This document shows, one piece after another, positions 241 to 13,983 of a stretch of 64,000 nt of DNA. Below the pieces are notes generated by a model. It searched no databases. It was given only the letters and a program-made list of their open reading frames with translations, and was not told the DNA's origin. A program made the position numbers and the translations under genes. Within the stretch, counting starts at the first letter, position 1. Every line of letters begins with the position of its first letter. The DNA is taken from IMG/VR virus record IMGVR_UViG_3300025101_000019, positions 64,001-128,000 of that record, one strand, 5' to 3'. This DNA comes from a virus.

Positions 241-1368
241 TTAAAGATTTCTCCATGCAGCGGTCTTCGAAGTACCCTTAGTTATATTTTCAGAAGGTAC
301 TTTTTTAATTACAGGTGGTTCATTCTCACCATATAGTTCTTTTGCATCTTCGTTTGGTACAAATCTAACTTGTTCATTATCATCAAAAGTTCTTACTTGA
401 TTTTCTGGTTGACTTTCTTCCAAAACTTCTTGTACTTCTTCTTGTTGAGGTTCTGATGGTTCTTCCTCATCTTCTTCATCTTCTTCAACAATGGGTTCGT
501 GAGAATCACTATCAGGGGGAGTCCCACCATTCCCATCATGTATAATATTGCCTGTGCCGTTGTCATCTTTTCTTCCTAATAATTTATTTAATGCAATTAC
601 CATAGCGATTGCTAATGGGTCAAAAACAAATACTATTAATAATGTAAACCAATTAACAATTACATTCATTGGCTTCTCAGTTAACTCTGCCATATATCTA
701 AGTGGACCTATCTCAGCTGCCACTTCGTTATTTGATTCAATATCTAATACTTGTAATTCAAGTTTTGTAATTGAGTCAGTTAATTGTTCAAGTTTCACAT
801 TTATACCTGCCCTTGTTTCTACTGCGGTATTTAATTCTTTCGTTAACAACTTTCGAGTTGAGGAAGATTGTGTTGTAATAATTCTACCCAATGTATCTGT
901 ATATTGTATTTTGTTATTAGAGATACCATTCCTCAAGTCAAGGATAGATTTTGTTAAATTACTTTTTTCTATATTGTAATAATCAAGTTGTTCTTGGAAT
1001 CGGTCTTTCTTTAACTCAATTACTTTAACTTGTTTTTCTACAATTCCCAATTGGTCTGCGGTTGTTTGATATGCTGATGTTAAGAATCCGTAGATACCTA
1101 ATGATGTAATCACCATCAGTATACCAACTGCAAGAGTTAGATACCATTTCATCCACCCTGCTTTACTCCAATTATTATGTAGGTATGATGCGGTAACAAG
1201 TTTTGCTACTTCTAATGCACCTGCCATAACGATAACTTCAAACTTAGCCCCTGCGAACAAAGAACTCAATCCAAATACTGAATAATAAGCTGCAGAACCT
1301 GCTACTGAGAAGGTACTGATAATCATTAATAGGATGAACCCATTTGACCTGTTGAAAAGTTTTTTCAT
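241..1368 (-). CDS. membrane protein with coiled-coil and acidic C-terminal tail
   Basis: Three N-terminal TM segments, long heptad region, a further TM, E/D-rich tail. Confidence 0.7.
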   Translation of the reverse strand: MKKLFNRSNGFILLMIISTFSVAGSAAYYSVFGLSSLFAGAKFEVIVMAGALEVAKLVTASYLHNNWSKAGWMKWYLTLAVGILMVITSLGIYGFLTSAYQTTADQLGIVEKQVKVIELKKDRFQEQLDYYNIEKSNLTKSILDLRNGISNNKIQYTDTLGRIITTQSSSTRKLLTKELNTAVETRAGINVKLEQLTDSITKLELQVLDIESNNEVAAEIGPLRYMAELTEKPMNVIVNWFTLLIVFVFDPLAIAMVIALNKLLGRKDDNGTGNIIHDGNGGTPPDSDSHEPIVEEDEEDEEEPSEPQQEEVQEVLEESQPENQVRTFDDNEQVRFVPNEDAKELYGENEPPVIKKVPSENITKGTSKTAAWRNL

Positions 1369-10846: not shown

Positions 10847-11197
10847 TTATAGTTTACCCGCGTCTCGTAGTTTTTTACGGATTTTGGTGGCGGATATATC
10901 GTGAATATCGCCTGGTGGAATGTGTTCTATTATATCGTAACCAACACCACGACCATAGTTTACAGATTCAATATCAGGTATTATTATTATTCTAACTCTA
11001 CCATCATGTATAAGGTCTTGAAGTTCTATATGTAGATTGTCGTATACTTCTTGTGGTGTATATGGTTGGTTCTCATTTGGTTCAACATCACGAATGGCAA
11101 TACATACATTCTTGCCTTCGTTTAATCTTTGGTCAATCAACCAACGATGACCATCATGCCAAGGTTGCCATCTACCTATGAATAGTGAGTACTTCAT
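10847..11197 (-). CDS. HxGH nucleotidyltransferase (cytidyltransferase-like) adjacent to APS kinase
   Basis: GRWQPWHDGH and ISATKIR motifs. Confidence 0.8.
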   Translation of the reverse strand: MKYSLFIGRWQPWHDGHRWLIDQRLNEGKNVCIAIRDVEPNENQPYTPQEVYDNLHIELQDLIHDGRVRIIIIPDIESVNYGRGVGYDIIEHIPPGDIHDISATKIRKKLRDAGKL

Positions 11198-11621
11198 TTA
11201 ATGTTTGTATTGGTAGTTTATCATCGGTACATAACCATATATCGTCTGTACCTATTTCCATTGCGTCTGTATGGTAGTGTTCTCGTCCTCTAACTTCTTG
11301 TGTAAATAAGTAAAACATTTTAGGGTTTAAATCTAATAGTTCATCTCGTACATCTTTGTATGGGCCAACAACTGATATGACTACATGAAAGTTTTTATGG
11401 TGAAGGAATCTGGCAATAGTAGTAACCTTTCTCATATTGTTCTTACGACCCTCTTCACTATAATCAGTATTACTAAATACCTCTCTCATAAAATCACCAT
11501 CGATATGTATTACGGGATTACCAATTGTCTTATACTCGAAGTGTTCTTTTAAAAGTTTTGCTATTGTTGTCTTACCTGCGCCGGGTTGACCATAGAACCA
11601 ATATATCATTCGTACAACCAA
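11172..11621 (-). CDS. cysC: adenylylsulfate kinase-like protein
   Basis: GQPGAGKTT, IDGD, YSEEGRKNN motifs. Confidence 0.75.
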   Translation of the reverse strand: MVVRMIYWFYGQPGAGKTTIAKLLKEHFEYKTIGNPVIHIDGDFMREVFSNTDYSEEGRKNNMRKVTTIARFLHHKNFHVVISVVGPYKDVRDELLDLNPKMFYLFTQEVRGREHYHTDAMEIGTDDIWLCTDDKLPIQTLNEVLTIHR

Positions 11622-12241
11622 TTGTCAAGTTCTTCGACTTGAATTAAACCTAAGTCTTCTTCTCGATTTGCATCCATGATATTAAACTCATAAAATGGAT
11701 TGTGTCTTTGTACGAGTGGTGTATCCATAAAGAAATTATTTTGAACAATACCAATACCCCAATCAGTATCTACTACACAAACTTTTAAATCTCTTCTACT
11801 TGTTCTTAACTCGTATATTGCTTTCCATACCGTACCATTCCATGGTTGATACTCACCATCTACCATATAGTTTTCTCTTGCCATATGAGCTGATGGTGGA
11901 TTACAATCGTGTAAAAGAATATAACCATTTGGATTTAGATATCTAAGAGAGTTGTGAATGTCTTGTTTTACTTGATACGATTTGTGTAACCCATCTATAA
12001 AGATAATATCAAATTTATCGTTAGGTCTTCTATCATCCATAAATCTAAAAAACTCATCAGAGGTCATTTGATGGTCAACGGGATTCTCTTCAAACTCAAC
12101 GCCAGGGTCAACACCTTCTTTGTGTTCACATTGTACTTGGTCAAAACAATGAACAGGATTACATACACCAATTTCAAGATAACTTTTGAAGTCGTTCTCT
12201 TTTATTAGTTTGTTTATAATATCAAATCTATAAGTATACAT
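11606..12241 (-). CDS. class I SAM-dependent methyltransferase (Methyltransf_24-like)
   Basis: YLEIGV, DIIFIDGLH, GYILLHD. Start reset to MYTYRF because the longer ORF runs through tRNA genes. Confidence 0.8.
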   Translation of the reverse strand: MYTYRFDIINKLIKENDFKSYLEIGVCNPVHCFDQVQCEHKEGVDPGVEFEENPVDHQMTSDEFFRFMDDRRPNDKFDIIFIDGLHKSYQVKQDIHNSLRYLNPNGYILLHDCNPPSAHMARENYMVDGEYQPWNGTVWKAIYELRTSRRDLKVCVVDTDWGIGIVQNNFFMDTPLVQRHNPFYEFNIMDANREEDLGLIQVEELDNWLYE

Positions 12242-12255
12242 ACTAAATTTTATTG

Positions 12256-12327
12256 TAGCCCCTAGGAGAATCGAACTCCTCTTTCCAGGATGAAAACCTG
12301 GCGTCCTAACCGATAGACGAAGGGGCC
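12256..12327 (-). tRNA. tRNA-Glu(TTC)
   Basis: Cloverleaf GGCCCCT...CCAGG TT TTC AT CCTGG...GTTCGATTC; CCA not encoded. Confidence 0.93.
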
Positions 12328-12337
12328 AGTATATTAG

Positions 12338-12409
12338 AGCGGAAAGGTGGAACTGCCCCACCATCTCCACATTGGTAATGTGGCGAGTTTCTTTTAACTC
12401 TTTTCCCGC
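12338..12409 (-). tRNA. non-canonical tRNA-Gly-like RNA, anticodon ACC
   Basis: GCGGGAA/TTTCCGC acceptor, U73, GAGT/ACTC D stem, CCACA-TTACCAA-TGTGG, GGTGG-GGCAGTT-CCACC. Confidence 0.75.
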
Positions 12410-12413
12410 TTAG

Positions 12414-12485
12414 AGCGGAAGGTTGGAACTGCCCCAACTCCTTTGTACTGGATGTACAACGACTTTCTTTTAAGTCTTCTCCCGC
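12414..12485 (-). tRNA. non-canonical tRNA-Gly-like RNA, anticodon TCC
   Basis: GCGGGAG/CTTCCGC acceptor, U73, GACT/AGTC D stem, TTGTA-CATCCAG-TACAA, GTTGG-GGCAGTT-CCAAC. Confidence 0.75.
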
Positions 12486-12495
12486 GATTGTTTAC

Positions 12496-12527
12496 ACAAT
12501 ATACAAAATAAAATTGACATGGCCAAA
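12496..12527 (-). promoter_or_regulatory. Bacteroidota-type promoter driving the tRNA-Gly-like pair
   Basis: TTTGG-N19-TATATTGT ending 10 nt before the first G of the RNA. Confidence 0.75.
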
Positions 12528-12534
12528 TTTTTAG

Positions 12535-12608
12535 TGGAGAATATCGGAGTCGAACCGATGACCTCTTCGGTGCAAGCGAAGCGCTCTAGCCATCTGAGCT
12601 AATTCCCC
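12535..12608 (-). tRNA. tRNA-Ala(TGC)
   Basis: GGGGAATTAGCTCAGATGG...CT TGC AC...GTTCGACTC; G3-U70 pair. Confidence 0.95.
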
Positions 12609-12617
12609 AATAAAGAT

Positions 12618-12887
12618 TTATCCTTTTAACAATTCCTTTTCATCCGATTCGGATACAGGAATGTCGTGACCATATTCTTTACCAAAGTTTTTAGTAAGTA
12701 CCGACAACTTGCCAGTTGCGGATTCTAACTTACCTAATAACTTATCGATTTCTTCTGTGTGTTGTGGATGTTCACCTATCGCAACAGGTGATTCAAAGTA
12801 GATTGATAATGTCGCCCTTGCGTCCATTATTTCTGCAGTATACTTTGCCTCTAAGGCTTGGTATAATCTTCTTGATAATTTACTCAT
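12618..12887 (-). CDS. hypothetical phage protein
   Basis: PVAIGEHP motif recalled from small phage proteins. Confidence 0.6.
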   Translation of the reverse strand: MSKLSRRLYQALEAKYTAEIMDARATLSIYFESPVAIGEHPQHTEEIDKLLGKLESATGKLSVLTKNFGKEYGHDIPVSESDEKELLKG

Positions 12888-12935
12888 AACAAATTTGTTT
12901 TTAATAGTTAACTTTATATAAATATAATTTTATTT

Positions 12936-13235
12936 TTAATCAACGCTATATAGATTATATTTTAGCGTTATCTCTTCATCACTTGGGATTGGTCTAAGTG
13001 TAAACAACATTAGATTCCCATCGATATCTTGTCTTACTTCACAATTGGGAGTATCACTATGATTTATGAATCCACCCAATGGTGTTCTGATATATCCGTT
13101 TTCAAACTTATCGTTAGGTATATGAGTGACTCCTATGAATCTTGCGTGTGGTAACGACTCAGTTGAATACAATCCTAACCCTTCAATTTCAGATTGTTTA
13201 ATTGTAACTTCTTTTGGTAGTGGTCTATATGTCAT
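12936..13235 (-). CDS. SET-domain methyltransferase
   Basis: SEIEGLGLY, FINHSDTPNC, EEITLKY. Confidence 0.85.
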   Translation of the reverse strand: MTYRPLPKEVTIKQSEIEGLGLYSTESLPHARFIGVTHIPNDKFENGYIRTPLGGFINHSDTPNCEVRQDIDGNLMLFTLRPIPSDEEITLKYNLYSVD

Positions 13236-13983
13236 GTGGTTGGGTTAATGAGTTATTATACATCTCTGTTCTGTATTGTACACCGACACATTCATTCAAT
13301 GCGAATGTAATCAAGTCTTTTTCAAAGATATAGTTGAGGTCTGTTCGTGGTGTTTCACAATATAATGCAGGTAGGAATTCGTCAATAACAAATATCATTT
13401 TTTTATACTTATCTAAATGATTCTCTACTAACTTTTTAATTCCGTTCTTACTTAACAACAATGCGTGAGTTTGATATGAGTAGCCAGGTTTACATATCAT
13501 ATCATCTATTGGAGTATCTTGAACACCTTGAAATCCTGTTTGAAGTAATCTACCTAAATAAAATAAATCATAGTTCATAGATTTTACTTTATCAAGTTGT
13601 GACCAATCCATAGGTTTTTCAAATACAAAGTCATCTTCATATACAAGTATATTATCATATCCATTCTTGTATGCATCTTCCCATACAGCGATATGAGATA
13701 GTGTACATCCAATCTCACCCAATGTGACATCTCTTTGCCAGTAACGATTAGCATTATCTTTTACATGGACATCACTTGTATTTAAGTTCCAATCTTTATA
13801 TGCTTCAATCCCCATCAATTGCATATGATGAGTTGTCAACTTCCTACCATCAATACCAAGTACTTCAAATGGAACTTCGTGTGGTAGTCCAACCTTGTCT
13901 ATCTCTTTTAGAATAGATGCGATGTGTTCATCACTCCAATCTAAACTAATAATGTATATCTTATCTATCGCCTTTTCGGTCAT
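13225..13983 (-). CDS. glycosyltransferase family 25 (COLGALT/Lex2-like)
   Basis: GEIGCTLSH, VYEDD, DLFYLGR, YSYQT, DEFLP. Confidence 0.85.
   Translation of the reverse strand: MTEKAIDKIYIISLDWSDEHIASILKEIDKVGLPHEVPFEVLGIDGRKLTTHHMQLMGIEAYKDWNLNTSDVHVKDNANRYWQRDVTLGEIGCTLSHIAVWEDAYKNGYDNILVYEDDFVFEKPMDWSQLDKVKSMNYDLFYLGRLLQTGFQGVQDTPIDDMICKPGYSYQTHALLLSKNGIKKLVENHLDKYKKMIFVIDEFLPALYCETPRTDLNYIFEKDLITFALNECVGVQYRTEMYNNSLTQPHDI

Follow-up and report, generated by a model that had tools for sequence, protein, structure and literature searches.

What purpose is served by a tRNA gene that keeps the nucleotides recognized by bacterial glycyl-tRNA synthetase (GlyRS), while the universal tertiary and decoding elements of tRNA are in large part replaced? 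This question is raised by a 64,000-nt stretch of viral DNA (the window; bases 64001–128000 of the 173,350-bp IMG/VR phage record IMGVR_UViG_3300025101_000019, here G000, estimated to be 95% complete), in which two 72-nt non-canonical tRNA-Gly-like genes, unit A (12485–12414, minus strand) and unit B (12409–12338, minus strand), are separated by only 4 nt (CUAA; 12410–12413, minus strand). We consider it likely, from the comparison of sequences, that the units serve the Mom enzymes of this phage as private glycyl carriers, kept apart from translation.

Mom of phage Mu is a GNAT-fold enzyme that takes glycine from Gly-tRNAGly and transfers it to N6 of adenine in double-stranded DNA, where the glycyl group rearranges to N6-carbamoylmethyl-adenine and blocks restriction (Silva et al., Nat Commun 2026, PMC13219725; preprint 2023, bioRxiv 10.1101/2023.03.24.534169). 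A preliminary description of the locus, made from its sequence alone, had listed a glycyl donor for a non-ribosomal transferase among the possible roles of the two units. This is the role favoured by the evidence presented here, and the transferase can be named as a Mom GNAT (Pfam PF25680), because the RNA lies in or against mom in diverged lineages, three copies of mom are present in this phage, and Mom of Mu uses Gly-tRNAGly.

An RNA family with glycine identity

Each unit alone folds into a cloverleaf (−25.9 kcal/mol for unit A and −28.9 kcal/mol for unit B, z approximately −3.9 each), and the stems of the two differ in a compensatory manner. Unit A has G-C at pair 7-66, GACU/AGUC in the D stem, UUGUA/UACAA in the anticodon stem and GUUGG/CCAAC in the T stem, where unit B has A-U, GAGU/ACUC, CCACA/UGUGG and GGUGG/CCACC, respectively. 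The D loop (UAAAAGAA) and the T loop (GGCAGUU) are the same in both. The glycine set, i.e., G1-C72, C2-G71, G3-C70, U73 and C35C36, is complete in both units, and no CCA is encoded after U73. U8 is replaced by A8, G18G19 is missing (the D loop has A18 G19 only) and so is U54U55, the T loop reading G54G55C56A57G58 from position 54. The anticodon loop of unit A (CAUCCAG) carries A33, the anticodon UCC and a C32-G38 pair, and that of unit B (UUACCAA) carries U33, the anticodon ACC and a U32-A38 pair. The universal nucleotides U8, G18G19, U54U55C56 and U33 are not kept as a set, U33 being absent from unit A only. All this, including the location of the pair between tRNA-Ala and tRNA-Glu, agrees with the preliminary description, and only its drawing of the stems is refined: the D stem has five pairs, with 14-21 added, and closes a hexaloop AAAAGA, and positions 32 and 38 pair as well.

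It was also anticipated that ARAGORN would miss the units. At default settings neither is called, and with relaxed thresholds unit B is called first and then both, as tRNA-Gly(acc) and tRNA-Gly(tcc). The Rfam tRNA model (RF00005) gives unit B 23.6 bits, below the gathering score of 29, and has no match to unit A at E up to 10; other Rfam families match neither the AT-rich nor the GC-rich form of the unit. One may ask if the units are simply decaying tRNA pseudogenes, since standard tRNA finders overlook them or score them below threshold. The homologues of the units answer this question.

Three pattern scans of IMG/VR yielded about 85 loci and a regular-expression pass gave 62 distinct units; the alignment comprises 59 distinct sequences and is free of indels except for two single-base exceptions. 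The family thus has at least 59 distinct members, which are found in viral contigs and in metagenome-assembled genomes (MAGs) of Planctomycetota and Verrucomicrobiota, and it spans hosts of GC content from 44% to 75%. Standard pairs fill 98.6% of 1357 pair cells, as compared with 39–50% when the partners are slid by 1–3 columns, and double compensatory changes, affecting both sides of a pair, are seen at 14 of the 23 pairs. Invariant positions are G1, C2, G3, C70, G71, C72, U73, A8, G10, A18, G19, C35 and C36, together with G49-C65, G52-C62, G53-C61 and the T-loop nucleotides G54 G55 C56 A57 G58. Bacterial GlyRS has G1-C72, C2-G71, G3-C70, U73, C35 and C36 as its identity set, and this set is kept in all 59 sequences. 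The fifth D-stem pair (14-21) changes from U-A to C-G in 18 sequences and closes a hexaloop of the form AARAGA, and in 58 of the 59 sequences a standard pair, C-G in 53 of them, links positions 32 and 38. Position 33 is A in 31 sequences, U in 20, G in 4 and C in 3, and the anticodons are UCC (35 sequences), CCC (15) and ACC (9). U at the first D-loop position occurs in four sequences only, the same four that have AA at 59-60, which may reflect a single lineage event. The A18-G19 with G55-C56 pattern suggests that the G19-C56 elbow pair was kept while its neighbours were rewired.

The units can be regarded as selected functional RNAs, as had been proposed from the two copies alone, because covariation extends over the whole family and the loops are invariant. 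The pseudogene explanation is contradicted by the homologues, by their near-complete pairing and covarying pairs, and by loops that stay unchanged over the whole range of GC content, which leaves it with next to no probability. A covariance model built from the family, R1 (signature A8, 5-bp D stem, AARAGA, GGCAGNN, C35C36A37 and U73), scores unit A at 92.1 bits and unit B at 89.7 bits, a match by construction, because both were in the seed; nothing further in the window is matched, and neither are the canonical tRNA-Gly(GCC) genes of related phages at E up to 10. Such a model and a search of viral metagenomes had been suggested in the preliminary description, and homologues with conserved structure were indeed what was found. 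Cultured phages were covered by a blastn search of 50,697 phage records with both units, which gave no match.

Two other readings of the same DNA were rejected. On the plus strand the D position would receive a 5-bp/7-nt arm and the T position a 4-bp/8-nt arm, in an orientation opposed to that of the flanking tRNAs. As protein-coding sequence the units fail because array-type relatives, e.g., L004, have an in-frame TAA within the unit.

Association with mom genes

The strict pattern scan of prokaryotes, in which each species was represented by one genome, returned 12 matches, all in MAGs of Planctomycetota and Verrucomicrobiota (R1, 87–91 bits), and no other tRNA was found near these 12 units. 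At every one of the 12 loci the sequence 5′ of the RNA shows the conservation of a coding region, and the RNA itself is contained, in frame, in the 3′ end of an open reading frame (ORF) of about 250–290 aa, which is Mom (PF25680, E 1e-42 to 1e-46). The GC-rich viral contigs show the same arrangement, with a Mom gene in 19 of 20 and, in those 19, the unit inside the mom ORF at frame offset 0; R1 scores of mom-embedded RNAs from MAGs and GC-rich viral contigs together range from 81 to 92 bits. About 35 small phage or prophage loci have the RNA within or against the mom gene. The stop codon of mom falls within the unit in contig L032, and the unit lies immediately 5′ of mom in L064 and L024. Small phages and prophages that have no other tRNA carry exactly one such RNA, within mom. 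The Moms beside the units form at least four clusters at less than 50% identity, and those beside or around embedded units share only 27–30% identity with Mom of the phage studied here.

The mom-linked subset taken alone retains 12 pairs with double changes and has 95.7% of its cells paired, and in mom-embedded units the encoded amino acids vary along with the covariation of the stems. A 71-nt variant with a 6-nt anticodon loop (CCCCAG), found in different metagenomes (L020:9082–9152, L033:4768–4838 and L049:7108–7178), lacks a base and shifts the mom frame, yet its fold is retained; mom stops 13 nt past the RNA. Selection thus acts on the RNA, because the stems covary while the residues change and because the 71-nt variant shifts the frame and keeps the fold. 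The part of Mom that follows the conserved PYPK motif shows no conservation in any of the Moms aligned, and this variable C-terminal tail merely tolerates the embedded RNA.

It could be argued that the RNA is mainly a cutting signal for RNase P and RNase Z, or a regulatory signal, of the mom transcript, and that the copies in tRNA arrays are leftovers without any carrier role. In the GC-rich clade the RNA lies in the mom frame, so that its excision would cut the mom mRNA, and tight regulation of mom is known in Mu (PMC3378877, PMC6483171). But in the present phage and its relatives the units lie far from mom and have a conserved promoter of their own, invariant loops and glycine identity, none of which is needed by a cutting signal. 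We hold this explanation to be hardly probable at all.

The large phages provide a second form of association. Three Mom genes are present in G000 (132958–133539, 136174–136845 and 136931–137587; PF25680, 118–161 bits). In an alignment of Mu Mom with these three Moms, residues H58, Y59, R111, S124, D149 and Y159, which are important or essential in Mu Mom (PMC13219725), are invariant. Co-occurring transferase genes, which the preliminary description had recommended to look for, were found in all eight RNA-carrying relatives that are at least 70% complete, with two or three Mom genes in each. RNA-carrying fragments less than 65% complete mostly have no Mom, as is to be expected with genes so distant from each other. 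Conversely, each of the five records that bear Mom and are at least 90% complete gives an R1 match, and some of these matches are intermediate forms, in which A8 and the glycine identity set are combined with a T loop of the canonical UUCGA type. The large genomes of relatives typically hold two units each, usually with a fully canonical tRNA-Gly(GCC) beside them, often 7 nt downstream of one of the units, and their tandem units often have the same anticodon twice (e.g., L051 and L023).

Two side observations concern the arrays of units. In relatives, a conserved stretch of about 60 nt (AAAACCG ... TACCGG ... AT) precedes the second type of unit, which is often the neighbour of tRNA-Gly(GCC); it is seen ahead of the units at L002:10082–10150(−), L012:13945–14013(−), L086:6962–7030(+), L005:6768–6836(+), L011:3877–3945(−) and L065:5580–5648(+); this stretch may represent a further small RNA or an element for processing. 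In another phage lineage, at L051:6704–6958(+) and at the equivalent places in L038, L039, L035 and L073, an 84-aa ORF ends at a TAA in the D loop of the first tandem unit. It belongs to no known family, and the gene ahead of it encodes an Asp/Asn beta-hydroxylase-like domain (PF05118); no Mom was found on the fragments of this lineage (13–52% complete).

Signs of separation from translation

Affinity for EF-Tu was predicted with the additive T-stem model of Schrader and Uhlenbeck (PMC3239215, Table 2), which was calibrated on canonical tRNAs, while the T loop of the units is altered; read with this limit, the prediction is −9.5 kcal/mol for each of the two units, with a mean of −9.56 kcal/mol (range −10.0 to −9.4) for the 59 family members. 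For the canonical tRNA-Gly(GCC) genes found in the same phage arrays the model predicts −10.1 to −11.0 kcal/mol, the means for bacterial tRNAGly are −10.8 and −11.0 kcal/mol, and the cell-wall (non-proteogenic) tRNAGly of Staphylococcus aureus gives −9.5 kcal/mol. The T stem contains G49-C65, U50-A64 and U51-A63 in unit A, and G49-C65, G50-C64 and U51-A63 in unit B. G49-U65 and G51-C63 are absent from the whole family, and G49-U65 is kept in seven of seven canonical array genes. It is the lack of these two pairs that defines the staphylococcal non-proteogenic class, and the analogy with staphylococcal tRNA-Gly drawn in the preliminary description holds as far as this T-stem and EF-Tu criterion is concerned. 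From what is generally known of tRNA function, loss of U33 in most members, a Watson-Crick pair at 32-38 and replacement of U8, G18, U54, U55 and A58 would likewise point to exclusion from translation.

Could the units nevertheless decode? They might be translational tRNA-Gly isoacceptors (UCC for GGA/GGG and ACC for GGU), with an odd body that was perhaps shaped to evade host nucleases directed at tRNA, the link to Mom being coincidental or secondary. ARAGORN, default or relaxed, finds no canonical tRNA-Gly in this phage, whose dominant glycine codons, GGT (45.8 per 1000) and GGA (20.3 per 1000), are matched by ACC and UCC, and a decoding role, alone or shared, keeps some probability for that reason. 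The units also stand in a cluster of tRNAs, in the same orientation as tRNA-Glu and probably on one transcript with it, and every anticodon in the family is a glycine anticodon. Conserved glycine anticodons do not argue for decoding, however, because charging by GlyRS needs C35C36 anyway. Two thirds of the members lack U33, with all four bases found at this position, 32-38 is almost always a standard pair, and U8, G18 and U54U55 are all replaced. The predicted EF-Tu affinity is 1.2–1.5 kcal/mol weaker than the bacterial tRNAGly means, tandem pairs of relatives repeat one anticodon, and tRNA-less small phages and prophages carry just one such RNA, inside mom. Taken together, this makes a translational role unlikely.

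The variable position 33 could also be seen as a trace of an arms race over the anticodon loop, and tRNA clusters of phages are often discussed as tools of counter-defence. Both points would suit units that act as decoys or regulators, i.e., charged or uncharged mimics that soak up GlyRS, anticodon nucleases or tRNA-directed defences. Such a role, also named in the preliminary description, has found no support: it leaves unexplained the physical fusion with mom in several lineages, as well as the strict invariance of the GlyRS identity elements and U73. Variation at position 33 looks rather like relaxed constraint, because this position also varies as a synonymous third codon position in mom. 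We judge a decoy role to be very improbable.

A proposed carrier pathway and its place among known systems

How would a private glycyl carrier be made and used? The units lie on the minus strand, which holds nearly all long ORFs of the window. Upstream lies a canonical tRNA-Ala(UGC) (12608–12534, minus strand; ARAGORN; Rfam, 67.3 bits), followed by a 48-nt spacer before unit A that contains a promoter-like site (12498–12527, minus strand) found by consensus scan and composed of TTTGGCC, a 17-nt spacer and TATATT after TTTTG. Downstream, a 10-nt spacer separates unit B from a canonical tRNA-Glu(UUC) (12327–12255, minus strand; ARAGORN; Rfam, 57.3 bits). The dedicated promoter claimed in the preliminary description is present as a site, but its distance from the units had been given as 10 nt, and the −10-like hexamer TATATT ends 12 nt ahead of G1 of unit A. 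The site belongs to a class, TTTGG-N(15-21)-GTATATT, usually with (AAA)TTTYG ahead of the hexamer, that is represented by 15 sites on the coding strand of the 173-kb genome and by a single one on the opposite strand. Within the window its copies start at 225, 2484, 6585, 12527, 18432, 35133 and 51611 (minus strand), and further copies are placed ahead of the mom block, inside it and directly behind it (G000 137872, 136997, 136106 and 132951). The element is kept ahead of the equivalent unit in diverged relatives and ahead of the mom-overlapping unit of L032. The class probably marks one temporal set of transcripts, including those of the replication and mom regions. No terminator-like site was found between unit B and tRNA-Glu on the minus strand, and the two probably share a transcript.

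The genes around the array (11172–13983, minus strand) encode an APS-kinase-like P-loop protein, a class I methyltransferase (Methyltransf_24), a SET-domain protein and a GT25 glycosyltransferase, and such a combination is unusual in a phage. They were considered as partners of the units and rejected, none being a known aminoacyl-tRNA user or kept beside the units in relatives. An ORF of 254 aa (11606–12370, minus strand), which starts at a GTG in unit B and runs through tRNA-Glu into the Methyltransf_24 gene, is an artefact of ORF calling, and the true start of that gene is most likely the ATG at 12241.

In the pathway that we propose, the phage promoter would drive a precursor with unit A, unit B and tRNA-Glu, from which RNase P and 3′ trimming would free the 72-nt bodies, and CCA would then be added. 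The phage has a CCA-adding domain of its own (PF01743, 112 bits; G000:C1:30361–30717, outside the window) in an open frame of about 1215 aa, as suits a phage with tRNA genes that lack an encoded CCA. Host GlyRS would charge the units with glycine, as is suggested by the invariance of every bacterial glycine identity element in the family. A phage-encoded GlyRS was considered and rejected, as no match to the class II synthetase core PF00587 was found in the phage genome, and charging would therefore fall to the host enzyme. The charged RNA would then be shunned by EF-Tu and the ribosome and form a pool outside translation, the features expected to insulate it being A8, A18 for G18, G54G55 for U54U55, G58, a T stem without G49-U65 and G51-C63, the Watson-Crick pair 32-38 and the free position 33. 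From this pool the Mom paralogues would move glycine to adenine N6 of the phage DNA, giving N6-carbamoylmethyl-adenine, which would block host nucleases; this step is established in the literature for Mu and is expected here from homology and the conserved catalytic residues. The likely benefit is that glycine is supplied stoichiometrically to the tens of thousands of adenines of a genome and translation is not drained of it.

Several observations weigh against a private carrier of this kind. All three canonical isoacceptors of E. coli serve Mu Mom, and its authors suspect that the acceptor end alone is read (PMC13219725); a special tRNA is not required by Mom, because the Mu enzyme takes all three. 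In G000 the units (76338–76485) lie 56–61 kb from the mom genes, which are outside the window, and the co-occurrence in large phages may be one inherited trait of a lineage and not a repeated association. Among cultured phages the nearest Mom carrier is Polaribacter phage P12002L; its Mom is 44% identical, and the phage has no copy of the RNA and no tRNA at all. Glycine-type genes with the GGCAGUU T loop, encoded CCA and other D arms are present at L059:5896–5967 (minus strand; a complete 65-kb phage) and in L022, L076 and L040/L048/L054/L071, and for two of these types (L059/G041 and L022/L076) the phage genome is complete or nearly so and has no detectable Mom; the ORF upstream of the L059 gene was considered as Mom and is not Mom-like. 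In L067 a GC-rich unit (489–560, minus strand) is preceded by a non-Mom ORF (552–1244, minus strand; 230 aa), which is in the usual frame and stops at a TAG made by unit bases 7–9; this ORF has no Pfam match, and no Mom was found on the 10.9-kb contig. The match of the two anticodons to the main glycine codons of the phage and the calibration of the EF-Tu model, both described above, belong to the same side of the balance.

If the units are carriers for Mom, their invariant odd loops may be a handle recognised by the enzyme. A more specific proposal, which we put forward only tentatively and think rather doubtful, is that the rewired elbow (A8, A18-G19 and G54G55C56A57G58) is a private handle that makes the RNA an orthogonal co-substrate: host GlyRS would charge it, EF-Tu and the ribosome would refuse it, and the Mom paralogues would prefer it. 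In the mom-embedded form, on this proposal, excision of the RNA would couple the enzyme with its co-substrate and limit expression of the toxic Mom. If this were true, the embedded form would be a tRNA gene and the enzyme that uses it in one overlapping unit.

The use by Mom of an amino acid from charged tRNA on DNA was shown only recently, and the published work assumes scavenging of host tRNAGly, the host tRNA pool being treated as the source of glycine (PMC13219725). If the carrier reading is correct, many phages bring their own co-substrate, in the form of widespread, conserved tRNA-Gly derivatives that travel with mom. The family would offer a testable handle on tRNA recognition by Mom, a possible starting point for orthogonal tRNA-enzyme pairs and, as standard tRNA finders miss the RNA, a marker for predicting momylated phage genomes in metagenomes. 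The main text of the Mu study makes no mention of tRNA-like or phage-encoded tRNA (PMC13219725), and among the papers searched none ties a phage-encoded or mom-embedded tRNA to the use of Gly-tRNA by Mom.

The units resemble canonical tRNA-Gly (RF00005) in the dimensions of the cloverleaf (acceptor stem of 7 bp, anticodon and T stems of 5 bp, anticodon and T loops of 7 nt), in the glycine identity set and in being placed within a tRNA cluster; they differ in lacking U8, G18 and U54U55, and in unit A also U33, and in being sub-threshold or undetected in Rfam. Mom of Mu belongs to the same family, PF25680, as the Moms of this phage, shares their catalytic residues and carries out the glycyl transfer to adenine N6 that is proposed here. 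Mu, however, encodes no tRNA and relies on host tRNAGly of any isoacceptor, whereas this phage has three Mom paralogues and two non-canonical carriers. A closer likeness to the embedded members is provided by genomic islands of Dehalococcoides, in which a conserved tRNA-Gly-like "pseudo-tRNA" with anticodon DCC was described in a mom homologue in 2011, at a position inside the first 150 bp of the annotated gene, and was assigned no function (McMurdie et al., PMC3146451). By that description it is, like the mom-embedded family members, a glycine-type cloverleaf inside a mom homologue on a mobile element, although Dehalococcoides gave no match in the strict pattern scan of prokaryote genome contigs; the units of this phage, in contrast, are in a tRNA cluster with their own promoter and neither in nor near mom. 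A carrier role, if true, would account for this element, which has been unexplained since 2011.

The reading as a whole is of a known class, that of non-proteogenic tRNAs feeding aminoacyl-tRNA-dependent GNAT transferases, of which a phage carrier for Mom would be a new form. It would be the second natural tRNA to have evolved off the ribosome in order to feed a transferase, after the staphylococcal cell-wall tRNAs, and the first for DNA modification. The non-proteogenic tRNAGly species of S. aureus (NP1, NP2 and NP3/NEW) donate glycine to FmhB/FemA/FemB, so that there, too, a glycine-type tRNA stands alongside a GNAT-fold aminoacyl-tRNA-dependent transferase. They likewise lack G49-U65 and G51-C63 and have the same predicted EF-Tu affinity, and their published rationale, a Gly-tRNA pool divided between translation and a demanding non-ribosomal pathway, would apply here as well. 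Unlike them, the units are encoded by a phage, their proposed acceptor is a DNA adenine and not a peptidoglycan precursor, and their partner would be Mom and not a Fem enzyme. Their remodelling also goes deeper than in S. aureus, with A8, a 5-bp D stem and hexaloop, the GGCAG T loop, a Watson-Crick pair at 32-38 and a free position 33.

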